From an uncultured Rikenellaceae bacterium (GTDB taxonomy: Bacteria; Bacteroidota; Bacteroidia; Bacteroidales; VadinHA17): a stretch of DNA of 64,000 nt. This document shows positions 22,529 through 33,278 of this stretch, in pieces; positions within the stretch are counted from its first letter, which is position 1, and each line of letters opens with the position of its first letter. The stretch is taken from assembly GCA_964577305.1 (NCBI GenBank), contig CAZNYS010000008.1, positions 12,635 through 76,634 of the forward strand, given 5' to 3'. The notes below the pieces were generated by a model that saw only the letters and a list, made by a program, of their open reading frames with translations, did no database searches and was not told the DNA's origin. Both the position numbers and the translations under genes were made by a program.

Positions 22529-23854
22529 ATGAAAGAACAGTTCGAACAATACCGGCAGCAAAAAAACATTTTTTCCAGGAATGATAAGATTCTGCTGGCT
22601 GTAAGCGGTGGTATCGATTCTGTTGTAATGCTGGATATATTTATTAAGGCAAAATATAATATAGCAGCTGCACACTGCAACTTTCAGCTTAGAGGGATAG
22701 AATCTGATGGAGATGAGGCATTTGTCGAAAACCTTTGCAGCAAGGCCGGGGTAAAACTTTATAAGACGAGATTCATGACTGCTGAATATGCCACTGATAA
22801 GGGTGTATCAATACAGATGGCCGCACGTGATCTTAGATTTGAGTGGCTGGCTAAAATAAAGGAAGAAGAAAATTTTGACCTTGTGGCTACAGGCCATAAC
22901 CTGAATGACAGCATAGAAACCATACTTATTAATCTTACCAGGGGTACAGGTATAAATGGCCTTACCGGAATAAGTCCAAGGTCAGGATATATTATTCGGC
23001 CAATATTGTTTGCAACAAGACAGATGATCCGGGAATATGCTATAAATAATAATATAGAATATCGGGAAGATTCAACCAATATTCAAACAAAATATACAAG
23101 GAATAAAATCAGGCATAATGTTATTCCTGTACTGGAACAAATTAACCCATCGGTTCTTCACTCTATTGATGAAACTTCTGATTACCTTAAATCAGCATAT
23201 ATCATTTATGAACAGGCGATTGCATCGAAAAGGCAGGAAATAATAGAGTACAGTGGTAAAACAGTCTTCGTTAAAACCTCTGAATTAAGCATATTAAAGC
23301 CAGCGGAGACATGGGTTTATGAACTCTTTAAAGACTGGAATTTCGGCAAGCAGCAGGTTGGCGACATCATTCAGCTTATTAATGCAGAAACTGGGAAACA
23401 GCTATTCAGTAACAGCCACATTTTAACCAAAGACAGGGATAGGATAATTATTACTCCTTTAAATACTGAAGAAGGAAAAGTAATTACTATTAATTCTGCT
23501 GATGATTTGAGGAATAACGTCATAATAGAAAGTTATAAAATATTACCACGAAAAAATCTCAATATCAACAATGATTCCGCTTATGCATATCTTGATGCTG
23601 ACCTTATACAGTATCCCCTTACAATACGCAGATGGAAAGAAGGCGATTACTTCTACCCATTAGGCATGCAGGGCAGGAAAAAAATCAGTGACCTTCTTAT
23701 TGATATGAAAATGCCCCTGCCTGAAAAGGATAATATTTACGTTCTGGAAATGAATGGTAAAATAATATGGGTCATAGGCCTTAGGATCGACGACCGGTTT
23801 AAAGTCACTGAATCAACTGTTGAAGTTCTAATAATCCGAAAAAGGATGGGTTAA
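22529..23854 (+). CDS. tilS: tRNA(Ile)-lysidine synthetase
   Basis: The PP-loop LLAVSGGIDSVVM is present and the length is 441 aa. Confidence 0.9.
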   Translation: MKEQFEQYRQQKNIFSRNDKILLAVSGGIDSVVMLDIFIKAKYNIAAAHCNFQLRGIESDGDEAFVENLCSKAGVKLYKTRFMTAEYATDKGVSIQMAARDLRFEWLAKIKEEENFDLVATGHNLNDSIETILINLTRGTGINGLTGISPRSGYIIRPILFATRQMIREYAINNNIEYREDSTNIQTKYTRNKIRHNVIPVLEQINPSVLHSIDETSDYLKSAYIIYEQAIASKRQEIIEYSGKTVFVKTSELSILKPAETWVYELFKDWNFGKQQVGDIIQLINAETGKQLFSNSHILTKDRDRIIITPLNTEEGKVITINSADDLRNNVIIESYKILPRKNLNINNDSAYAYLDADLIQYPLTIRRWKEGDYFYPLGMQGRKKISDLLIDMKMPLPEKDNIYVLEMNGKIIWVIGLRIDDRFKVTESTVEVLIIRKRMG

Positions 23855-24639
23855 TTATCGGTCATTCCTGTATTATTACGAAGCCTGTCAAAAAGATCGT
23901 GTAATTCTTTCTCCTCGTTATTTTCCAGCATCCTTATCAGTTCATCCAGCCTGCTGCTTATTTCGTAAAGCTTATCAACCGAATATTTATTCAGCAGGAT
24001 TCCACTCAGCAGGTAATCATCTTCTGACAGTAAACCGTGTGCTATTTTAAGATGGTTTCTGAAAGTAGTTCCCGGTACTTCCAGCTTTTTCATGCATGCA
24101 GAAAATACGATGGTTGAACTGAATGGTATTGACAGTGAGTAAGCAATTGTTTTGTCATGCTCAACGAAATCATATTCATATATCTTCAGGCCCAGGTCCC
24201 CGTAAAAAGTCCTAAAAAAATCCGTTCCCTCCGGGTCTGATTCTGAAATTATTATAGCGCTTTCTCCCTGCAATTCCTTAACATTTCCAAAGGTGGGTCC
24301 AAACATTGGATGGGTCGAAACAAATCTGAAACCACATCCTGCATAAAACTCTGCCAATCCGTTTTTCACCGATGCTATATCAGAGATAATGCAATCTTCA
24401 GGTATATAAGGCAAGATCTGATTATAGGCTGTTATCGTTTGTTTTAATCCTGTGGCATTTATCAGTAGTTGAGGTCTGAAATCGGCTATTTCATTTAATT
24501 CCTTAAACCTAAATGTATTAAACAGGTATTTCAATTTGCGTGGATCATAATCATAAACTCCCACATCATAATCAAGGCAAAGTGTCTCGGCAAGCCACGA
24601 ACCCATATTGCCAGCTCCTGCTATCAGTATTCTTTCCAT
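23851..24639 (-). CDS. tyrA: Prephenate dehydrogenase
   Basis: It has an N-terminal Rossmann motif IAGAGNMGSWLA and the HPMFGP motif. It is the last gene of the aromatic operon. Confidence 0.8.
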   Translation of the reverse strand: MERILIAGAGNMGSWLAETLCLDYDVGVYDYDPRKLKYLFNTFRFKELNEIADFRPQLLINATGLKQTITAYNQILPYIPEDCIISDIASVKNGLAEFYAGCGFRFVSTHPMFGPTFGNVKELQGESAIIISESDPEGTDFFRTFYGDLGLKIYEYDFVEHDKTIAYSLSIPFSSTIVFSACMKKLEVPGTTFRNHLKIAHGLLSEDDYLLSGILLNKYSVDKLYEISSRLDELIRMLENNEEKELHDLFDRLRNNTGMTDN

Positions 24640-25632
24640 TTACTTAATTCCTCCGTATATTGCCCTGTTTATAAGAGTCAGGTCAGCCAGTGCCAGGGAT
24701 ACAGCTGCTTCTATAATTACCGGTATTCTCAGTGCTATACATGCATCGTGCCTTCCTTCAATCTTTAGAACATCCATTTCATCCTTTTCAATGTTCCAGG
24801 TTTGCTGCTCTTTCGAAATACTTGAAGGCGGTTTAACGGCCATCCTAAGTATTATATCGTTCCCATTACTTATTCCACCGTTAATACCTCCTGCATTATT
24901 ACTGGATGTTTTACCGTCCATACTTATTATCGGATCATTATGCTCTGAGCCCCTCATTGAAGCTGCCCGGAAACCCGATCCGAATTCAATGCCTTTTATT
25001 GCCGGTATTGAGAATACTGCCTGACTTATAGCTGATTCAGTCGTGTGGCAGAGTGGTTCTCCGAGTCCTGCCGGTATACCTGAGACCACACATTCTATCA
25101 AGCCTCCGATTGAATCACCTTCCTCCAGTACTTTGTCTATTTCTGAGTCCACATCTGTACTTCCTCCGGCGCTTATCAGCTCTGCTTTTACCTCTGCAGG
25201 TTTAATTATTAATCTGGCAATTGATCCTGCGACAACCATTCCCCAGGTGAGCCTGCCTGAAAGATGTCCACCCCCACGGTGATCAGAATAACCTTTGTAT
25301 TTTTGCCGGGCAACCATGTCAGCATGACCCGGCCTGGGTATAGCAGTAAATTCACTGTAATCAGAAGAGCGTTCATTAGTATTCCTGGTCATTATCATTA
25401 ACGGTGCACCTGTGCTTACTCCGTTGAACACCCCGCTGACTATTTCCGGCATATCATATTCCCTCCTGGCTGTAGTTCCCTTTTTACCACTTCGTCGCCT
25501 GTCGATATCTTTCAGGATCATTTCATCGTTAATTGACAGGCCGGGAGGACATCCATCAATAAGAACACCTATCCCCGGGCCGTGCGATTCGCCAAATACG
25601 GAAATCCTGAATATTTTTCCTAATGTATTCAT
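24640..25632 (-). CDS. aroC: Chorismate synthase
   Basis: The N-terminus FRISVFGESHGPGIGVLIDGCPPG is the chorismate synthase signature. Confidence 0.9.
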   Translation of the reverse strand: MNTLGKIFRISVFGESHGPGIGVLIDGCPPGLSINDEMILKDIDRRRSGKKGTTARREYDMPEIVSGVFNGVSTGAPLMIMTRNTNERSSDYSEFTAIPRPGHADMVARQKYKGYSDHRGGGHLSGRLTWGMVVAGSIARLIIKPAEVKAELISAGGSTDVDSEIDKVLEEGDSIGGLIECVVSGIPAGLGEPLCHTTESAISQAVFSIPAIKGIEFGSGFRAASMRGSEHNDPIISMDGKTSSNNAGGINGGISNGNDIILRMAVKPPSSISKEQQTWNIEKDEMDVLKIEGRHDACIALRIPVIIEAAVSLALADLTLINRAIYGGIK

Positions 25633-25636
25633 CTTC

Positions 25637-26914
25637 TTATTCTGATATTTTTATTTTTACTCCAAGGTGTAAAAGGTCCCTGAAAAAAGAGGGGTAAGAC
25701 TTATTTACTGATTCAGCTCCCGAGATAATTACACTGCTTTCAGCTGCAACAGACAATACAGCAAGGGCCATGGTTATCCGGTGATCGCCATGCGAATCAA
25801 CCCTCCCGCCTTTTATTACCGAGGGGCCTTCAATTTCAATCCTGTTGCCGTAATTTGAGATCTTTACTCCCATTTTTAAAAGCTCAGTCATAAGCGTATC
25901 TCCCCTGTTGCTTTCCTTTACCTTTAGTCTTTCCGTCCCCCGGATAATAGTTTTCCCACGGCAAAAAGATGCCAGTACTGTAAGTGGTGGAGCCAGATCG
26001 GGGCACTCAGATATGTCAGTCTCAAAAGAGTTTAGTTCAGCCTGTTTTACTGTAATCTCATTTTCAGTCATTTCAACAATAGCACCTGCTTTTCTGAGAA
26101 TATCAATGATTGCAATGTCAGATTGGGTTGACATATAAGATATATCTCTTACTCTAACCTCTCCGGCAATGGCTGCCAGTACAAACAGGAAGGCTGCTCC
26201 ACTCCAGTCTCCTTCAACGATATATGATACAGGTTTGTATTTCTGCAAACCAGGAATATTAAAAACTGCATAATTTTCATTAATAACCTCTATGCCAAAA
26301 TGATATAAAACTCTAATTGTCAGGTCTATATACGGCTTGCTCTTAAGATTATTAACAATAATCTTTGAGTCAGAATCCAGTATGGGCAGAGCAATAAGCA
26401 GACCGGTCAAGAACTGGGAGCTTACTGAACCATCAACAAAAACGAGGCCTCCCTTCAGGGGACCTTTTATCTTCAGGGGCAGGAATCCATTTGTTGTAAT
26501 AACTTCTACGCCCATTTGTGTAAGTGTTTCCGATAACATATTTACCGGACGTTTAAGCAATGACCCGCTACCATGGACTTCTATCCAGTCTTTGTTTAAA
26601 GAAGCCAGCACAGAAAATACCCTTGCTCCCAGTCCCGATTCAGCACAAAATATCTTATTGCAGACCGGATGATAACCTCCTTCAATTATTACCCTGTCTG
26701 AAAGGCTCTTAATATCAGCACCCAGGCATTCAGCCATTTGCATTGCAGCAAGTGCATCTTCACATAATGATGGATTAATAATTTCAGATCTGCCTTCTGC
26801 AAGTAAAGCACAGGCAACAGCTCTTTGCATGGCACTCTTTGACGGTGGTGCATATATAGTGCCATTGACAGATGATGCCTCTACTGCAACTTTCATATTA
26901 AGAGGTTTTATCAC
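25637..26914 (-). CDS. aroA: 3-phosphoshikimate 1-carboxyvinyltransferase (EPSP synthase)
   Basis: 425 aa with EPSP synthase blocks (PPSKSAMQRA, LKVKESNRGD, GDHRITMA). Confidence 0.9.
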   Translation of the reverse strand: MIKPLNMKVAVEASSVNGTIYAPPSKSAMQRAVACALLAEGRSEIINPSLCEDALAAMQMAECLGADIKSLSDRVIIEGGYHPVCNKIFCAESGLGARVFSVLASLNKDWIEVHGSGSLLKRPVNMLSETLTQMGVEVITTNGFLPLKIKGPLKGGLVFVDGSVSSQFLTGLLIALPILDSDSKIIVNNLKSKPYIDLTIRVLYHFGIEVINENYAVFNIPGLQKYKPVSYIVEGDWSGAAFLFVLAAIAGEVRVRDISYMSTQSDIAIIDILRKAGAIVEMTENEITVKQAELNSFETDISECPDLAPPLTVLASFCRGKTIIRGTERLKVKESNRGDTLMTELLKMGVKISNYGNRIEIEGPSVIKGGRVDSHGDHRITMALAVLSVAAESSVIISGAESVNKSYPSFFRDLLHLGVKIKISE

Positions 26915-27929
26915 GTAATTTATTCATAATTTCGTCAAGCTGATATTCCTTCTGTATTGCCGTGCCTATGCCATTAAGCAGTATAAAATAAATATTAGTG
27001 CCCTTCCTTTTTTTGTCTGCAAGGATCTTATCACTTATATCCGGCCAGCTGGTTTCTTTTGCTGGCAGTAATCCCAGCCGTTTAAATGTATACCTGATCC
27101 TTTCTGTTTCTCCCTTAGTTATTAGTCCTTCATCATATGATATCTCCACAGCAGCCATCATGCCCGCTGCAATTGAAATGCCATGGCCTAATCCTGTTGC
27201 TGACTCGATAGCATGGCCCAGTGTATGTCCAAAGTTCAGCACTCTCCGTTCACCAAGTTCCTTTTCATCTTTTTCAACAATAGATGCTTTTATTGCAATA
27301 GATTCTGATATTAATTTCTGCAGCAGGCCCTCTTCTCTTTCCAGTATACGGTTTATATTTTTCTCTATTAATTCAAATAATTCATAATCCCTGATAAGAG
27401 CATGTTTCACCAGTTCACCCAGGCCTGAAATGAATTCCTCATCAGGCAGGGTTTTCAGCAGACCTATATCGCAAATGACAAATGAAGGCTGGTTAAAACA
27501 ACCGATAATGTTCTTTATTCCGTTTACATTTACCCCGTTTTTCCCTCCTATACTGGCGTCCACCTGTGAAAGCAAGGTTGTCGAAACAAATCCGAATTTC
27601 GTACCCCTCATGAATATTGAAGCTACAAAGCCTGTAATATCACACACAATACCTCCACCTATACCAAGAAGGAATGAGGATCTGTCAGCACCAATAGCCA
27701 GAAGGTGTTTTATTATGGTTTCCACTGTATCCGGTTCCTTCACAGCTTCGCCAGTACCTATTGTTATTACAGGATATTCCGGGAAATGATGACCGTAAAG
27801 ACCACCTACATTTATATCAGTAATAATAATAACGTCCTTTCCCGGCAGCATTTCATCAATTAATTCCCATGCATTGCCCATATAGACATTGGTCCCGGAA
27901 TTACCATATTTTATTTCCATTTTATACAA
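26898..27929 (-). CDS. aroB: 3-dehydroquinate synthase
   Basis: 343 aa with the blocks GGGIVCDITGFVAS, GGKNGVN and FGHTLGHAIE. Confidence 0.9.
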   Translation of the reverse strand: MYKMEIKYGNSGTNVYMGNAWELIDEMLPGKDVIIITDINVGGLYGHHFPEYPVITIGTGEAVKEPDTVETIIKHLLAIGADRSSFLLGIGGGIVCDITGFVASIFMRGTKFGFVSTTLLSQVDASIGGKNGVNVNGIKNIIGCFNQPSFVICDIGLLKTLPDEEFISGLGELVKHALIRDYELFELIEKNINRILEREEGLLQKLISESIAIKASIVEKDEKELGERRVLNFGHTLGHAIESATGLGHGISIAAGMMAAVEISYDEGLITKGETERIRYTFKRLGLLPAKETSWPDISDKILADKKRKGTNIYFILLNGIGTAIQKEYQLDEIMNKLRDKTS

Positions 27930-27969
27930 CGGTAGATATTTAATCCTTAAAGGTATTAAATCGAATCAA

Positions 27970-29049
27970 CTAATTCATCACCTTATTCTGGAAGCTGATG
28001 GATTCCTGATGTATCTGTTTAAATATTTGTATAATAAACTGATCACTCATCCCCATCTGCCTGGCTTTTGCCAGCCTGTCTTCCAGTATTTCAGACCAAC
28101 GCCCGGTTTGCAGAATTGTAATATTCTCTTTTTTCTTATACTTACCTATCTCCTCAGATATTAACATCCTGTTTCTTAACACTCTTATTAATTCAGTATC
28201 CCAATGGTCGATCTGCCTCCTGTATTCGGTCAGACCTTCCAGTTGTCTTGTATTATCGATTTCTGATTTTCTGTGAATAAGGCCTGCAAGTAATGTTTTC
28301 AATTCATCAGGTGTAATTTGCTGATCTTTATCACTCAAAGCAGTCTCAGGCTTATAATGCGATTCAATAAAAAGTCCATCAAAATCCAGGTCCATAGCTG
28401 TTTGCGATATGTTGAAAAGTAAATCCCGATTCCCGCATATATGGCTTGGATCAGTAATGACAGGCAATTCCGGTATTCTTCTTTTTAGTTCAATTGGAAT
28501 TTCCCACTGCGGCATATTGCGATAAGGCGAATGCCCATAATAACTGAATCCCCTGTGTATGGCAGCAAGTTTTTTTATCCCGGCCTTATTCAACCTTTCA
28601 AAAGCACCTATCCACAGTTCTATATCCGGATTAATGGGATTTTTAATAAAAACAGGAATATCGAGTCCCCTGAGTCCGTCAGCCAGTTCCTGCACTGCAA
28701 ATGGATTAGCGGTAGTACGTGCTCCCACCCATATAATATCTACCCCATATTTAAGTGCTTCTTTTAGATGCCACACATTTGCCACTTCTATGGCAGTGAG
28801 CATACCGGTCTCTTCCTTTACTCTTTTTATCCATGGCAGGGCGACTGAACCCAATCCCTCAAATGTGTCAGGCCTGGTTCTGGGCTTCCATATACCTGCC
28901 CTGAATATTTTTACCTTACTATCAGCCAGAAGTCTTGCTGTTTCAATAACCTGTTCCTCAGACTCGGCACTGCAGGGGCCTGAGATTATCAATGGTTTTT
29001 TATCCTTTCTGAACAGGCTGTTCTTGTTAAGATCCAGTTTGTCTTGCAT
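27970..29049 (-). CDS. Bifunctional DAHP synthase (type I-beta, KDO8PS-like) / chorismate mutase (C-terminal AroQ-class CM domain)
   Basis: The N-terminal ~265 aa is DAHPS-like (IISGPCSAESEEQV, DPSHICGNRD). The C-terminal ~90 aa is CM-like (ELIRVLRNRMLISEEIGKYKK...). Confidence 0.85.
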   Translation of the reverse strand: MQDKLDLNKNSLFRKDKKPLIISGPCSAESEEQVIETARLLADSKVKIFRAGIWKPRTRPDTFEGLGSVALPWIKRVKEETGMLTAIEVANVWHLKEALKYGVDIIWVGARTTANPFAVQELADGLRGLDIPVFIKNPINPDIELWIGAFERLNKAGIKKLAAIHRGFSYYGHSPYRNMPQWEIPIELKRRIPELPVITDPSHICGNRDLLFNISQTAMDLDFDGLFIESHYKPETALSDKDQQITPDELKTLLAGLIHRKSEIDNTRQLEGLTEYRRQIDHWDTELIRVLRNRMLISEEIGKYKKKENITILQTGRWSEILEDRLAKARQMGMSDQFIIQIFKQIHQESISFQNKVMN

Positions 29050-29056
29050 AATGTAG

Positions 29057-30205
29057 TTATTTTACTCTTTCCATAGCTTCTTTTATCCTTGATTCTTTAA
29101 GACTTAGAGATGTTCTGACATACCTCCTTCCATTCAAACCAAATACCAATCCGGGCGTAATAAACAAGTGGTATTTATCCAAACAGTGGTCTGAGAACTC
29201 ATATGAATCAGCAAATCTATCCGGTATTCTCGACCAGAGGAACATCCCGGACTGATCACTCGTTGTTGAGCAACCAAGACGAAGAAGCAAATCATAAACC
29301 ATTTGCTGTCGTAGCGAGTATATTAAATTGAGCTTATCATACCAGTCCTGCCCAATTCTGAAGGCTTTGATTGCAGCCTGCTGTATAGGAAGAAACATCC
29401 CTGAATCAATATTACTTTTAATCTTAAGGATATCATTTATGTGTTCTTCATGGCCAACTACCATTCCCAGTCTCCATCCTGCCATATTATGAGATTTACT
29501 TAGTGAGTTAAGCTCAAGAACATTTTCAAATGAATTAACTGATGAAAGAATGCTCAGGGGTTTATTGTTAAGAATGAAACTATAAGGATTATCGTTAACA
29601 ACTAAGATATTATGTTTACGGGCAAAATTAACCAGATCCCTGAATAATTTATCTGTTGCCCTCACTCCGGCAGGCATATTCGGATAGTTAACCCACATCA
29701 GTTTAATTCCCTGTAAATCGGTGCTCTCTATACTTTTCAGATCAGGCATCCAGTTATTTTCTTTACTCAGATCATAATAGATACACCTGGCACCACATAT
29801 CCTGGCGGCTGTCGCATATGCAGGGTAACCAGTGTCAGGAACAAGGACAGCATCCTCCATGTTCAGGTATGCCATACTTATATGCATTATTCCTTCTTTG
29901 GAGCCAATGAGTGGAAGTACCTGGCTGCCAGGATCCGGTTTAACATCGTAATAACGGTAATACCAGTCAGATATGGCTGATCTCAATTCGTCAATACCTC
30001 TATAGGGTTGATAACCATGAGCTTCTGCATTATTGCAACTGTTGGTGAGAGCATCAATAACTTCATCTGGTGGCAGAATATCAGGATTTCCAATTCCCAT
30101 GTTTATGATATCGATACCAGCTGAAATCATCTCCCTTATTATGGATAATTTGCCTGAGAAATAGTATTCTTTTGCCTGTTTTGTTCTGTTTGCTGAATCT
30201 ACCAT
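29057..30205 (-). CDS. Class I/II PLP aminotransferase, likely aromatic/prephenate aminotransferase; first gene of the aromatic operon
   Basis: 382 aa with the SLSKSHNMAGWRLG PLP-lysine motif. The functional guess rests on operon context. Confidence 0.8.
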   Translation of the reverse strand: MVDSANRTKQAKEYYFSGKLSIIREMISAGIDIINMGIGNPDILPPDEVIDALTNSCNNAEAHGYQPYRGIDELRSAISDWYYRYYDVKPDPGSQVLPLIGSKEGIMHISMAYLNMEDAVLVPDTGYPAYATAARICGARCIYYDLSKENNWMPDLKSIESTDLQGIKLMWVNYPNMPAGVRATDKLFRDLVNFARKHNILVVNDNPYSFILNNKPLSILSSVNSFENVLELNSLSKSHNMAGWRLGMVVGHEEHINDILKIKSNIDSGMFLPIQQAAIKAFRIGQDWYDKLNLIYSLRQQMVYDLLLRLGCSTTSDQSGMFLWSRIPDRFADSYEFSDHCLDKYHLFITPGLVFGLNGRRYVRTSLSLKESRIKEAMERVK

Positions 30206-30211
30206 AGAGTT

Positions 30212-30238
30212 AAAAAAAAGCCCCTCCTGAGGAGGGGC
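30212..30238 (-). terminator. Attenuator terminator in the 5' leader of the aromatic operon
   Basis: The minus strand reads GCCCCTCC-TCA-GGAGGGGC followed by T8, ending 6 nt before the aminotransferase ATG (30205). Confidence 0.7.
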
Positions 30239-30274
30239 TGTGTTTTAAATATTATATATACGAATATATCCCTC

Positions 30275-30331
30275 CTACTTTACTTCATTGAAGTAATAAT
30301 AGTAGAAGAAATAGTTATTCGCATTTATCAT
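30275..30331 (-). CDS. Candidate Tyr/Phe leader peptide MINANNYFFYYYYFNEVK (18 aa)
   Basis: Hand translation gives ATG ATA AAT GCG AAT AAC TAT TTC TTC TAC TAT TAT TAC TTC AAT GAA GTA AAG TAG, with eight consecutive Tyr/Phe codons. The stop codon abuts AGGAGGG, which can pair with the 5' arm of the terminator. Confidence 0.6.
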   Translation of the reverse strand: MINANNYFFYYYYFNEVK

Positions 30332-30349
30332 CCCTTATCAATTTGGCAT

Positions 30350-30357
30350 CAAAATTA
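30350..30357 (-). promoter_or_regulatory. -7 promoter box (TAATTTTG on the minus strand) for the leader and aromatic operon
   Basis: Exact TAnnTTTG match, 19 nt upstream of the leader ATG. Confidence 0.45.
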
Positions 30358-30448
30358 AGCTTGTTTATTTTATTTGCAAATAATTATCCTGATTTTATGT
30401 TTTTTCTTACAACATTTAAGTGAAATATGTATTATTGTATATTGCCGT

Positions 30449-31102
30449 ATGAGAATAAGAGAAAGATATAAGGGAGTAATTGACTATTTCCTCGAGCACA
30501 GGCCTGTTGCAGAAACAGAACTTATCTATACAGACCCATTTGAACTAATTGTTGCAGTTGTTCTATCTGCGCAGTGCACTGATAAACGGGTAAATATGAT
30601 TACCCCGGAGCTATTCCGCCGCTTTCCCGGAGCAAAAGAAATGGCAGAGGCCGATACAGATGAAATCCTGGAATATATCAAATCATGTTCTTATCCCAAT
30701 AGTAAAGCAAGATATCTTAAAGCGATATCAGAGGTACTGGTTTCCAAATTCAATAATACAGTTCCCTCTGATATTAGTGAATTACAAAAGCTACCGGGTG
30801 TAGGCCGTAAAACAGCCAATGTAATAGCCTGCGTAATATTCAACCAGCCTGTAATGCCTGTTGATACTCATGTTTTAAGGGTCTCGGCTCGAATCGGTCT
30901 GACAAATAATGCCCGGACACCACTGGCAGCAGAAAAACAGCTTACAGCAAATATCCCTGAAAAACTTATCCCGCTTGCTCATCACTGGCTGATACTTCAT
31001 GGCAGGTATGTCTGTAAGGCCAGGAAACCATTATGCCAGCAATGTGGCATAAATGATTATTGTAAATATTATAAGCTGCATAGCAAACAGGAAAGAAAAT
31101 AA
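30449..31102 (+). CDS. nth: Endonuclease III
   Basis: It has an HhH-GPD motif (LPGVGRKTANV) and a C-terminal 4Fe-4S loop (CKARKPLCQQCGINDYC). I prefer the ATG at 30449 over the upstream start of the listed ORF (30374). Confidence 0.9.
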   Translation: MRIRERYKGVIDYFLEHRPVAETELIYTDPFELIVAVVLSAQCTDKRVNMITPELFRRFPGAKEMAEADTDEILEYIKSCSYPNSKARYLKAISEVLVSKFNNTVPSDISELQKLPGVGRKTANVIACVIFNQPVMPVDTHVLRVSARIGLTNNARTPLAAEKQLTANIPEKLIPLAHHWLILHGRYVCKARKPLCQQCGINDYCKYYKLHSKQERK

Positions 31103-31113
31103 AATAATAATTA

Positions 31114-31121
31114 TACTTTTG
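31114..31121 (+). promoter_or_regulatory. -7 promoter box TACTTTTG for the sensor kinase gene
   Basis: Exact TAnnTTTG match, 25 nt upstream of the ATG at 31146. Confidence 0.45.
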
Positions 31122-31145
31122 ACCAAATAAAATATTTTCGTCCGT

Positions 31146-33278
31146 ATGCGAATAAAAACGAAAATAAACCGGCTTCTGGAGGTAAATGCAGAACTGAAGA
31201 AAAAAGTTGAAGAGCTTGAGAACCAGGCGAGCGAAAGAGATTCAGTAAGTTCAAATTTTGATAACCTGCTGAAAGAAAAGGCCCTGCTGGAGACACTTAT
31301 TGACACAGCTCCTGAATCTATAGTACAAACTACGACCGAGGGTGTAATTGAAAGAATTAATGAGGAATTTATAAGGGAATTCGGATATACCAGGGAAGAA
31401 GCTATAGGCAAAAATATTGATGACCTTGTTGTACCACCTGAATTGAGGAATGAAGGCATCAGTTATACCCGGCGAACAGCAAACAATGAAACTATAAGCA
31501 CTGATACTTACAGGATAAACAAGAATGGCGAAAAAATATATGTAAGCCTGATCATGCAGCCTGTAATGTTAAATGAGAATATCACTGCGTTGTATGCTAT
31601 TTACCGCAATATCTCAGTCAAAAAGAAGGACGACGATACAAAGTCAGTTATATATAATATTTCTGCAGCTGCGCTTACAATGACAGAGTTTTCTGATATT
31701 TTCAACTCAATAAAAGATGAGATTGGAAAAATATGGGATACGAAGAATTTCTATATAGTCCTTTATAATAAAGATACTGAAACCCTTACCTTATCCTTCT
31801 TCCAGGATGAGAAAGATCATTTTGAAGAGGTGCCTGTAAAAAACACCATTACCGGATGGCTAATAAAGGAGAACAGGCCCGTACTCCTCAAAGAGGCTGA
31901 TATTGATGAACTTGAGAGACAGGGCGAAATAGCATTGGTTGGTACACCATGTAAGGTATGGCTTGGCGTGCCACTGAGCGTTGAAAATGAAATAACGGGA
32001 GCCATGGTACTCCAGGATTATAATAATGAAAATATATTTACAAAGGACGACCTGCGGCTGCTCAGTCTTATAGGTAACCAGATAGCTCTTGCCATACAAC
32101 GTAAACGAATGCTGAACAATCTCATCCTCGAAAGAAGGAAGGCTGAAGAAGCAGCAAAGCTGAAACAACAATTTATGTCCACTATGAGCCACGAAATAAG
32201 GACTTCCCTGAACGAAGTTATAGGTATTAACAACCTCCTTCTCCAGGGTAATCCACGTGAGGACCAGATGGAATATATAAAGACATTGCGTTTCTCAGCC
32301 AATCATTTACTAACCCTGGTAAATGATGTTCTTGACTATACAAAGCTGGAATCAGGGAACATCAGCTTTGAAAGAACGAGGTTTGATATCTTCGAGTTTG
32401 CAGATGAATTAAAACGATCATATTCATTCAAAACAAGAAACAAGAATCTCGATTTTATACTGAAAGTAGATAGAAGTATCCCATCTGATATAATTGGTGA
32501 TCCTGTCAGACTTAACCAGATATTATCAAACCTCCTTTCAAATGCGGTAAAATTCACTTCTAAAGGTAGTATTGAACTGATTGTAAATGAAATATCAAGG
32601 TCGAATAAAGAAATAAACCTTAACTTCATTGTGAGGGATACTGGCATTGGTATACCATCCGACAAGCAGGAGGTAATCTTTGAAAGCTTTAAACAGGCTT
32701 CGGATGATACAACCAGGAAGTATGGAGGGACGGGACTGGGCCTTTCAATAAGTAAAAAGCTTGTTGAGCTCCAGGGAGGAAGTCTTAATGTGGACAGCAA
32801 ACCAGGTCAGGGATCAACCTTCTTTTTCAATATGAGATTTATAGTGGCATCCAGTCATGAAAAGAAAAAAATTGCCGGTGAAGTTGAGGAACGCTGGGAT
32901 GAATTAACAGGGAAGAAGATCCTCATTGCTGAAGACAATAGGATCAACTTCTTTGTAGCCAATAAATTCTTAACAAAATGGGGTATTGTAGTAACACATG
33001 CTGAGAATGGTAAGATAGCACTTGACCTTATTAGGGATAATAAATACGATCTTATATTAATGGATCTTCATATGCCTGATGTTGATGGCATTGAAGCAAC
33101 GGAAATAATAAGAAATTCGGATAATCCAGAGATAAAAAATCTGCCCATTGTTGCACTCACAGCAGCAATAATGTCGGACAATGAGAAAAAGCTCGAGGAA
33201 TTAGATATTAATGACTTTATCCTGAAACCATTTAAGCCAAGGGATCTGTACATGAAGATCCTTAAACATGCCAGGTAG
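31146..33278 (+). CDS. Cytoplasmic hybrid sensor histidine kinase / response regulator (coiled coil, PAS, GAF, HisKA, HATPase_c, REC)
   Basis: H-box STMSHEIRTSLNEV; N and G boxes (LLSNAVKFT, DTGIGIP, GGTGLGLSI); receiver domain ...DLILMDLHMPDVDG...KP. No TM helices are evident. Confidence 0.85.
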   Translation: MRIKTKINRLLEVNAELKKKVEELENQASERDSVSSNFDNLLKEKALLETLIDTAPESIVQTTTEGVIERINEEFIREFGYTREEAIGKNIDDLVVPPELRNEGISYTRRTANNETISTDTYRINKNGEKIYVSLIMQPVMLNENITALYAIYRNISVKKKDDDTKSVIYNISAAALTMTEFSDIFNSIKDEIGKIWDTKNFYIVLYNKDTETLTLSFFQDEKDHFEEVPVKNTITGWLIKENRPVLLKEADIDELERQGEIALVGTPCKVWLGVPLSVENEITGAMVLQDYNNENIFTKDDLRLLSLIGNQIALAIQRKRMLNNLILERRKAEEAAKLKQQFMSTMSHEIRTSLNEVIGINNLLLQGNPREDQMEYIKTLRFSANHLLTLVNDVLDYTKLESGNISFERTRFDIFEFADELKRSYSFKTRNKNLDFILKVDRSIPSDIIGDPVRLNQILSNLLSNAVKFTSKGSIELIVNEISRSNKEINLNFIVRDTGIGIPSDKQEVIFESFKQASDDTTRKYGGTGLGLSISKKLVELQGGSLNVDSKPGQGSTFFFNMRFIVASSHEKKKIAGEVEERWDELTGKKILIAEDNRINFFVANKFLTKWGIVVTHAENGKIALDLIRDNKYDLILMDLHMPDVDGIEATEIIRNSDNPEIKNLPIVALTAAIMSDNEKKLEELDINDFILKPFKPRDLYMKILKHAR

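Follow-up and report, generated by a model that had tools for sequence, protein, structure and literature searches.

A predicted tyrosine/phenylalanine leader-peptide attenuator ahead of the shikimate/tyrosine operon of an uncultured Bacteroidales bacterium

Introduction

How is the expression of a whole aromatic amino acid operon adjusted to the supply of its end products in an uncultured Bacteroidales bacterium, and does the short, tyrosine- and phenylalanine-rich open reading frame (ORF) that lies directly upstream of that operon take part? The locus in question is found in a stretch of 64,000 nucleotides (64 kb) of contig CAZNYS010000008.1, referred to here as the window, with all positions counted from its first nucleotide. 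On the minus strand of the window, six genes whose products make Tyr, Phe and their common precursors are preceded by a leader region containing a candidate promoter, an ORF of 18 codons with eight consecutive Tyr/Phe codons, and a GC-rich hairpin followed by a run of eight T residues (T8). An earlier note on this DNA had read the region as a leader-peptide transcription attenuator responsive to Tyr and Phe, and every computational and comparative test described below favours that reading, the support for which is of these two kinds throughout. On this evidence, it is very probable that the element is a classical four-segment, ribosome-mediated transcription attenuator which senses charged tRNA-Tyr and tRNA-Phe and controls the six-gene shikimate/tyrosine operon.

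The leader and its alternative structures

The leader ORF reads ATG ATA AAT GCG AAT AAC TAT TTC TTC TAC TAT TAT TAC TTC AAT GAA GTA AAG TAG, and its eight Tyr/Phe codons are the sole run of six or more aromatic codons across the six frames of the window. In first-order Markov simulations (300 trials), the expected number of aromatic runs was 0.11 for a length of at least six codons and 0.007 for at least seven, with none of at least eight. The stop codon of the ORF runs into the sequence AGGAGGG (30276..30270, minus strand), which shares the AG of TAG. Downstream of this is the terminator stem (30239..30212 with T8), which has 9 bp, of which eight are G-C pairs, and a 3-nt loop; a gap of 6 nt (AACTCT) then separates T8 from the ATG of the aminotransferase gene at 30205. 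The positions that the earlier note had given for the -7 box, the ORF, AGGAGGG, the hairpin, T8 and the spacing to the ATG were all correct on the minus strand (Table 1). The 140-nt leader folds at -47.6 kcal/mol, compared with -22.9 +/- 3.2 kcal/mol for shuffled sequences (z = -7.7), and a terminator scan of the region returned four sites against 0.6 expected. The terminator stem (30219-30239) is nearly palindromic, and it scores as a terminator on the plus strand too, where its tail (GTGTTTTAAA) is weak; as no gene on that strand converges on the stem, the plus-strand terminator is seemingly without function.

The candidate promoter elements upstream of the ORF correspond to TTTG/TAnnTTTG, the sigma-A promoter consensus of Bacteroidota. 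The pattern TTTG-N19-TAnnTTTG has two matches in the window against 1.5 expected, and on its own is indistinguishable from chance. From the mapped start of the Flavobacterium psychrophilum pheA leader, which lies 6 nt past the G of TAtgTTTG, we infer by analogy a transcription start site at ~30344; a start there would give a 5' untranslated region of 13 nt and a terminated leader RNA of ~130 nt.

The minimum free energy (MFE) and centroid structures of the leader both hold two helices, formed by segments 1 and 2 (1:2) and by segments 3 and 4 (3:4, the terminator). In the first of these, 30328..30301 pairs with 30279..30254, a stretch that includes AGGAGGG and AUAUAUUCGUAU, and the helix reaches 32 bp when its apical hairpin is counted. 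Segment 2, which also takes in the 16 nt 3' of AGGAGGG, has two possible partners, segment 1 and, by way of AGGAGGG, segment 3. With the latter (2:3), CCCUCCU (30236..30230) is the 7-bp antiterminator partner of AGGAGGG, and this pairing excludes the terminator. The predicted energies are -28.1 kcal/mol for 1:2, -17.9 kcal/mol for 3:4 and -11.7 kcal/mol for 2:3, the last of which takes in a small internal AUAUAU/UUCG hairpin. Because the 1:2 helix pairs leader codons 2-10 with the segment that carries the stop codon and AGGAGGG, the predicted architecture is the canonical four-segment design (1:2 / 2:3 / 3:4), as in trpL and pheL. The earlier note's description of a 'compact two-helix version of the pheL/trpL logic' was wrong on this point, since the 32-bp 1:2 helix (-28.1 kcal/mol) had been missed.

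Conservation among close relatives

Exact-protein look-ups with twelve aminotransferase homologues led to 16 loci and 13 distinct leader sequences, the window included; wherever 13 sequences are mentioned, this set is meant. The aminotransferases of these loci are 67-85% identical to that of the window, and the closest protein relatives come from metagenome-assembled genomes (MAGs) labelled Bacteroidales or Bacteroidota. The order of sensor kinase, endonuclease III gene (nth), promoter, leader and operon is found in all close relatives, among which the gene order within the operon is also kept.

The leader peptides vary (e.g. MNTNHYYFCYYYFIEVQ, MISANTYYFYYFYFTEVK, MIKTNNYPYYYYYFREVK, MITANNFFYFYFYYFTEAV and MTTANNYFFYYYYYLSN), and each contains 7-9 Tyr/Phe/Trp residues, in the same frame and from an invariant AUG (13/13). 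The TAnnTTTG box is present in all 13 sequences, with TTTG exactly 19 nt upstream of it in 12 of them despite a variable spacer. The UAGGAGGG motif, the AUG, CCCCUCC and the T run are all kept in the close relatives; CCCCUCC is invariant, terminator loops vary, and the T run measures 6-9 nt (13/13). In two loci (L164 and L174; L numbers denote individual loci) the last C of CCCCUCC lies outside the terminator stem yet is retained, as a partner in 2:3 would require. Within segment 2, UAGGAGGGAUAUAUUCG is invariant in the 13 sequences save in L176, where a U has become A and segment 1 carries the compensating change. The apical hairpin of 1:2 is likewise kept with altered loops and some altered pairs, including in L174, which has a different peptide C-terminus. 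When the 1:2 helix is aligned, 88.9% of cells are paired, whereas sliding the 3' partners by 1-3 columns leaves 37-59% paired, and compensatory change is seen at four 1:2 pairs, such as A-U to U-A (in L176) and A-U / G-U / G-C beside CGAAU. The comparison with relatives that the earlier note had suggested as a check therefore comes out in favour of the attenuator, with the ORF frame, the aromatic run and the helices kept in 13/13 sequences and four 1:2 pairs showing compensation.

The gene that follows the leader is not always the same. In five loci (Table 1) this leader is followed first by the gene for prephenate dehydratase (PDT, the product of pheA). In the operon of the window and of the remaining relatives pheA is absent and the aminotransferase gene comes straight after the leader; the two arrangements are interleaved when the loci are ordered by aminotransferase identity.

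Ribosome position and the choice of structure

The effect of a translating ribosome was modelled by folding the nascent transcript as far as the terminator loop, a stage at which the 3' arm has yet to be made, with the ribosome footprint assumed to reach from the A site to 13 nt beyond it. When no ribosome is present, the model of all 13 sequences forms 1:2 and leaves segment 3 mostly unpaired. With the A site 6-12 codons before UAG, that is, within the aromatic run, 2:3 is the nascent MFE structure in 13/13 sequences, at -9.5 to -13 kcal/mol. With the A site on UAG or three codons before it, 2:3 cannot form in the model of any of the 13. In the window model, an A site on any codon of the eight-codon Tyr/Phe run permits 2:3, and the run fills, in these simulations, almost exactly the interval in which a stalled ribosome melts segment 1 yet leaves AGGAGGG exposed.

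The folding of alternative structures that had been proposed as a check thus yields 1:2, 2:3 and 3:4, each dependent on where the ribosome stands. It agrees with the earlier statements that AGGAGGG pairs with the 5' arm of the terminator, this being the nascent MFE structure in 13/13 sequences with segment 1 masked, and that a ribosome at the stop codon masks AGGAGGG and lets the terminator form (13/13 in the model). The statement that a stalled ribosome leaves AGGAGGG free also holds in the model but is incomplete, since the ribosome is needed to melt 1:2 as well. Equilibrium folds of the complete leader under ribosome masks were tried and set aside: the terminator always wins in them, and they are uninformative on switching.

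Aromatic operon leaders across the phylum

Aminotransferase scans of genome and metagenome collections gave at least 160 loci, with ~50% identity among the matches listed, from Bacteroidales, Flavobacteriales, Cytophagales, Chitinophagales, Sphingobacteriales and one Chlorobiota MAG. These were screened with a detector that looked for an ATG-initiated ORF of 8-40 codons with at least five aromatic codons per eight, with a hairpin and at least 5 consecutive T residues no more than 170 nt further on. On the operon strand, 116 aromatic leader and terminator elements were found in 111 of the 160 loci listed, against 2 on the opposite strand. The distant elements sit 5' of the aminotransferase gene or, if there is one, of the gene preceding it, which in the Flavobacterium locus L069 encodes PDT.

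The pairing of the terminator 5' arm with upstream RNA was then modelled in the nascent ensemble for 126 distinct leaders, including the published sequence of F. psychrophilum. With a ribosome stalled on the aromatic run, the 5' arm was paired with a probability of 0.84; shuffling the intervening sequence lowered this to 0.51, and placing the ribosome at the stop codon to 0.20. Both differences (stalled versus shuffled, stalled versus stop) had the same direction in 126/126 leaders. Many distant leaders have a paired 5' arm even when no ribosome is present (mean 0.71). In the model the sequestering 1:2 helix is less general among them, while it is strong in the clade of the window. An nhmmer profile built from the 13 close sequences gave operon-strand matches at the leader position, with 12 distant loci passing E < 0.02 and 22 passing E < 1; its scores are low (8.7-25 bits) and could reflect shared composition, namely aromatic codons and a terminator. 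The same profile found no second copy of the leader in the window.

Two complete units of leader ORF and terminator stand in tandem 5' of the same operon in five loci, which belong to Marinifilum, Chitinophaga and three MAGs. Such pairs resemble double attenuators and are analogous to tandem riboswitches and T-boxes. The MAG labelled Chlorobiota carries an aromatic leader (MRATISTYFFFYSYYYFRSKPGGK) and a terminator 5' of its aminotransferase orthologue (L067:278-405), and this locus is the second-best nhmmer match to the profile of the window clade. The element type would therefore reach beyond Bacteroidota proper, unless the bin is mislabelled.

The window element may thus be one member of a phylum-wide, uncatalogued family of Phe/Tyr/Trp leader attenuators, found in Bacteroidota and Chlorobiota and in some cases in tandem, a reading for and against which we find the arguments evenly poised. 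Within it, such a family may be without an Rfam model and may be represented in the searchable literature only by a supplementary annotation for one species. Evidence for a large leader family absent from Rfam, tandem versions included, is the main by-product of the analysis, and a curated model built from the surveyed leaders would improve the annotation of many genomes and MAGs.

Proposed mechanism and alternative explanations

In the proposed mechanism, transcription would start ~13 nt 5' of the leader AUG from the TTTG/TAnnTTTG promoter. If the leader were left untranslated, 1:2 would pair, segment 3 would remain free, the 3:4 terminator would form and RNA polymerase would halt at T8, so that the default without translation would be termination. 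When Tyr and Phe are plentiful, the ribosome would reach UAG, its footprint would cover AGGAGGG, and the terminator would again form. When charged tRNA-Tyr or tRNA-Phe is scarce, the ribosome would stall within codons 7-14, holding segment 1 open and leaving AGGAGGG uncovered; the freed AGGAGGG could then pair with CCCUCCU before the 3' arm is transcribed, with the result that the terminator would be pre-empted and the operon transcribed.

Several points weigh against this account. The sequence features, their conservation and the pairings that depend on ribosome position are seen computationally; where transcription begins, that the leader is translated, that RNA ends at T8 in vivo and that Tyr and Phe are sensed are predictions. 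The terminator is always favoured when the full-length leader is at equilibrium (-15.9 to -17.9 kcal/mol, compared with -11.7 kcal/mol for 2:3), and since the terminator is the more stable of the two, the modelled switch must operate only kinetically, as in the E. coli trp system. The very stable 1:2 helix begins 1 nt past the AUG, and therefore leader translation is assumed to begin co-transcriptionally. Translation initiation in Bacteroidota uses unstructured, A/U-rich upstream sequence, without Shine-Dalgarno pairing. There is little covariation to draw on, since the clade hardly varies in segments 2, 3 and 4: double changes occur in 7 cells only, and a shuffle control equals this in 6 of 500 runs. 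Finally, the surveyed sequences are related to one another, and hence the figure of 126/126 overstates their independence and nominal P values are overstated.

Among the alternatives, the one that survives best, although we regard it as improbable, is that control is exerted mainly or additionally at the level of translation, with 3:4 and 2:3 respectively occluding and exposing the initiation region of the first gene in read-through transcripts. Counted from the ATG at 30205, the hairpin and T8 do span -7 to -34; all close relatives have only a short gap (3-13 nt) from the T run to the ATG of the first gene; and initiation in Bacteroidota is established to depend on unstructured, A/U-rich sequence upstream. 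However, T8 and a canonical stem suffice for intrinsic termination, and the distance from terminator to gene varies widely in distant loci, being ~50 nt in L069 and tens of nt elsewhere; tight spacing is therefore not a feature of the family. A translational component would at best supplement attenuation, not replace it.

A second alternative accepts the structures as real and gives the role of sensor to a bound protein or small ligand, as in TRAP, PyrR or riboswitch systems, so that the small ORF would be incidental. The near-invariance of segment 2 is what would be expected of a binding site, and Rfam yields weak matches below threshold, to PyrR (26.3 bits) among other leaders with a terminator. 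This reading is nevertheless very unlikely, as an AUG-initiated Tyr/Phe/Trp frame occurs in 13/13 close and 111/160 distant loci listed, despite nucleotide divergence and with a control strand yielding 2; the aromatic run is placed where a ribosome footprint opens 1:2 without covering AGGAGGG; and no riboswitch, T-box or PyrR family reaches the Rfam threshold. The proposal that the ORF encodes a functional aromatic-rich micropeptide, or that the leader is a stand-alone small RNA whose terminator merely ends a short gene, could draw on the predicted discrete transcript of ~130 nt with its own promoter and terminator, but can hardly be credited when the peptide (15-30 residues long) is unconserved outside the aromatic run and the pairing segments, when the element always lies 5' of aromatic biosynthesis genes on the same strand whether pheA or the aminotransferase gene comes first, and when the 6 nt between T8 and the ATG hold no other obvious promoter.

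The attenuator we favour would work by a textbook mechanism, and the conceptual gain is small. Its value lies rather in a mechanistic annotation for the control of a whole shikimate/tyrosine operon in an uncultured Bacteroidales bacterium. If the phylum-wide family is real, aromatic biosynthesis would by default be controlled through attenuation that couples ribosome and RNA polymerase, in a phylum with Shine-Dalgarno-independent initiation, and this would offer a ready-made system for studying transcription-translation coupling in Bacteroidota.

The operon and its neighbours

The earlier note had placed an aromatic operon led by an aminotransferase gene downstream of the leader, and Pfam assignments bear this out with six genes (Table 1). 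They are tightly packed on a single strand, are inferred to be co-transcribed, and end at 23851, facing a convergent tilS. No pheA/PDT homologue was found by tblastn in the window, and the window leader still holds Phe codons although its operon is without pheA.

Table 1. Positions of the leader elements, RNA segments and operon genes in the window, and of selected features at related loci
Feature	Position	Strand	Remark
Candidate -33 promoter element, TTTG	30377..30380	minus	19 nt 5' of the -7 box
Candidate -7 promoter element, TAATTTTG (TAnnTTTG)	30350..30357	minus	same position in 13/13 sequences
Leader ORF, 18 codons + TAG, peptide MINANNYFFYYYYFNEVK	30275..30331	minus	AUG invariant, frame kept in 13/13
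Eight consecutive Tyr/Phe codons (codons 7-14; 5 Tyr, 3 Phe)	30290..30313	minus	regulatory run
Segment 1, 5' strand of the 1:2 helix (leader codons 2-10)	30301..30328	minus	MFE and centroid structures
Apical hairpin atop 1:2, UUACUUC-AAU-GAAGUAA (codons 12-17)	30280..30296	minus	predicted fold
Segment 2: last sense codon, UAG, AGGAGGG, AUAUAUUCGUAUAU	30254..30279	minus	predicted fold
Segment 3: terminator 5' arm AGCCCCUCC (30239..30231) + CCCUCCU (30236..30230)	30230..30239	minus	
Segment 4: terminator 3' arm GGAGGGGCU (30227..30219) + T8 (30219..30212)	30212..30227	minus	
Terminator hairpin, GCCCCTCC-TCA-GGAGGGGC	30238..30220	minus	A30239-U30219 lengthens the stem to 9 bp
T8 tract	30219..30212	minus	3' of the terminator stem
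Six-gene operon	23851..30205	minus	Pfam assignments
Class I/II aminotransferase	30205..29057	minus	Pfam
DAHP synthase-chorismate mutase fusion	29049..27970	minus	Pfam
DHQ synthase (3-dehydroquinate synthase)	27929..26898	minus	Pfam
EPSP synthase	26914..25637	minus	Pfam
Chorismate synthase	25632..24640	minus	Pfam
Prephenate dehydrogenase	24639..23851	minus	Pfam
pheA at related loci	L164:1672-2520, L165:1442-2290, L166/L167:1672-2511, L176:1681-2511		first gene behind the leader
Tandem leaders at related loci	L052:2692-2960, L053:2673-2957, L044:1776-2064, L008:1352-1595, L087:1718-1953		Marinifilum, Chitinophaga, three MAGs

The database entry for the aminotransferase has 357 aa, or 93% of the ORF, which puts its start 25 codons downstream of the first ATG (region 30131-30205). 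Within the 25 N-terminal residues encoded from the ATG at 30205, however, R7, E13, Y14, Y15 and F16 are invariant among 32 homologues, and the start is therefore likely to be this ATG, 6 nt past the terminator, in preference to the shorter automatic call.

Upstream of the leader, and divergent from it, lies nth. A mechanical ORF from the TTG at 30374 (242 aa) would overlap the leader promoter; in all relatives the nth product is ~217 aa, matching a start at the ATG at 30449, and the divergent intergenic region is then 30206..30448 (243 nt). A hybrid sensor kinase of 710 aa with the domain order PAS-GAF-HisKA-HATPase-REC (31146-33278, plus strand) adjoins nth and the aromatic operon. It is kept in all close relatives (L161-L176) and has no evident link to the attenuator.

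Comparison with known systems

Rfam was searched in two ways, by an E-value scan of 28000..33000 of the window and by a scan of 20 related loci at gathering thresholds. The E-value scan returned sub-threshold matches only: Thr_leader (RF00506) at 34.7 bits against a gathering score of 55, STnc100 at 29.2 bits, Phe_leader (RF01859) at 27.9 bits (E = 0.14, gathering score 55) and PyrR at 26.3 bits. The Phe_leader match is carried by the terminator and does not denote a homologue, and the sub-threshold matches in general are driven by the terminator and by pyrimidine-rich codons. In the 20 aromatic-operon loci, the gathering thresholds were passed by one tRNA only and by no cis-regulatory family. 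An ORF in the +1 frame (MRITISSTIITSMK; minus strand, 30280-30324, ATG at 30324), which overlaps the leader and is rich in Ile, Thr and Ser, was considered as a Thr/Ile leader and treated as incidental, its ATG being present in only 2 of 13 relatives and the operon being aromatic; this frame probably accounts for the sub-threshold Thr_leader match.

Leader-type control has already been recognised in the phylum through the Bacteroid-trp motif (RF01692), a candidate cis-regulatory leader in Bacteroidetes (Weinberg et al., 2010; PMC2864571). The window element is likewise a candidate leader from this group, but differs from Bacteroid-trp in amino acid, operon and RNA, and RF01692 has no match in 28000..33000, even at E <= 10, nor in the 20 loci, where gathering thresholds were applied. 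Naville and Gautheret (2010; PMC2965389) still saw leader peptides as a feature, essentially, of proteobacteria and actinobacteria, and hence the phylum-wide extent of such leaders may not be widely appreciated. The transcriptome supplements for B. thetaiotaomicron gave only spurious, low-score Phe_leader matches. Candidate attenuators in Bacteroidetes/Chlorobi were reportedly described by Vitreschak et al. in 2004.

Close counterparts of the window element are the E. coli leaders pheL, ahead of pheA, and trpL, ahead of trpEDCBA. Like these, it is predicted to combine 1:2, 2:3 and 3:4 helices with regulatory codons in segment 1, a stop codon beside segment 2, termination as the default when untranslated, and a terminator that is more stable than the antiterminator. 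It differs from pheL in that Tyr and Phe would be sensed jointly rather than Phe alone, and in that the common shikimate pathway and tyrA would be controlled rather than a single gene. From both E. coli leaders it is further set apart by a different type of promoter and by the Shine-Dalgarno-independent initiation established for its phylum.

Whether such an element had been described before was left open by the earlier note. The literature searches returned a single explicit precedent, which shows that the same kind of element is known from the orthologous operon of F. psychrophilum: the 5' region THC0290_N_0195, mapped before pheA-aspC3, is annotated as a 'leader peptide attenuation element' with a peptide of 27aa (MNTNNTFYSNNSFYFYWNIGRDCYMVI), on the grounds that aromatic codons occur in tandem, that read-through depends on the condition and that the genes downstream are co-expressed (Guérin et al., 2021; PMC9723704, SI D9, Table S7). 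[quoted passage not shown] A near-identical leader (MTSNTFYYNNFSYFFWKTDRDCYMVC) precedes the genes for PDT and the aminotransferase orthologue in the Flavobacterium locus L069, and the published element is therefore tied to the set surveyed here.

The two leaders differ in several respects. Their nucleotide sequences cannot be aligned beyond weak nhmmer similarity; segment 2 lies inside the ORF in Flavobacterium and across the stop codon in the window; and the clade of the window has a much longer 1:2 helix and an uninterrupted run of eight Tyr/Phe codons without Trp. In the window, moreover, the aminotransferase gene comes first, pheA is absent, and the operon also has aroB, aroA, aroC and tyrA. 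What they share is the phylum and the operon family (pheA, aminotransferase and DAHP synthase), with an aminotransferase that is ~50% identical across the phylum, as well as a promoter of the TAnnTTTG type, a short ORF of clustered Phe/Tyr/Trp codons, a GC-rich hairpin and a T run. The window accordingly has the arrangement by which members of the group are recognised, an aromatic-rich small ORF and a terminator directly 5' of an operon for an aminotransferase and a DAHP synthase-chorismate mutase. The modelled pairing of the terminator 5' arm is also similar, at 0.85 with a stalled ribosome and 0.02 with one at the stop codon in F. psychrophilum, and 0.75 and 0.01, respectively, in the window.

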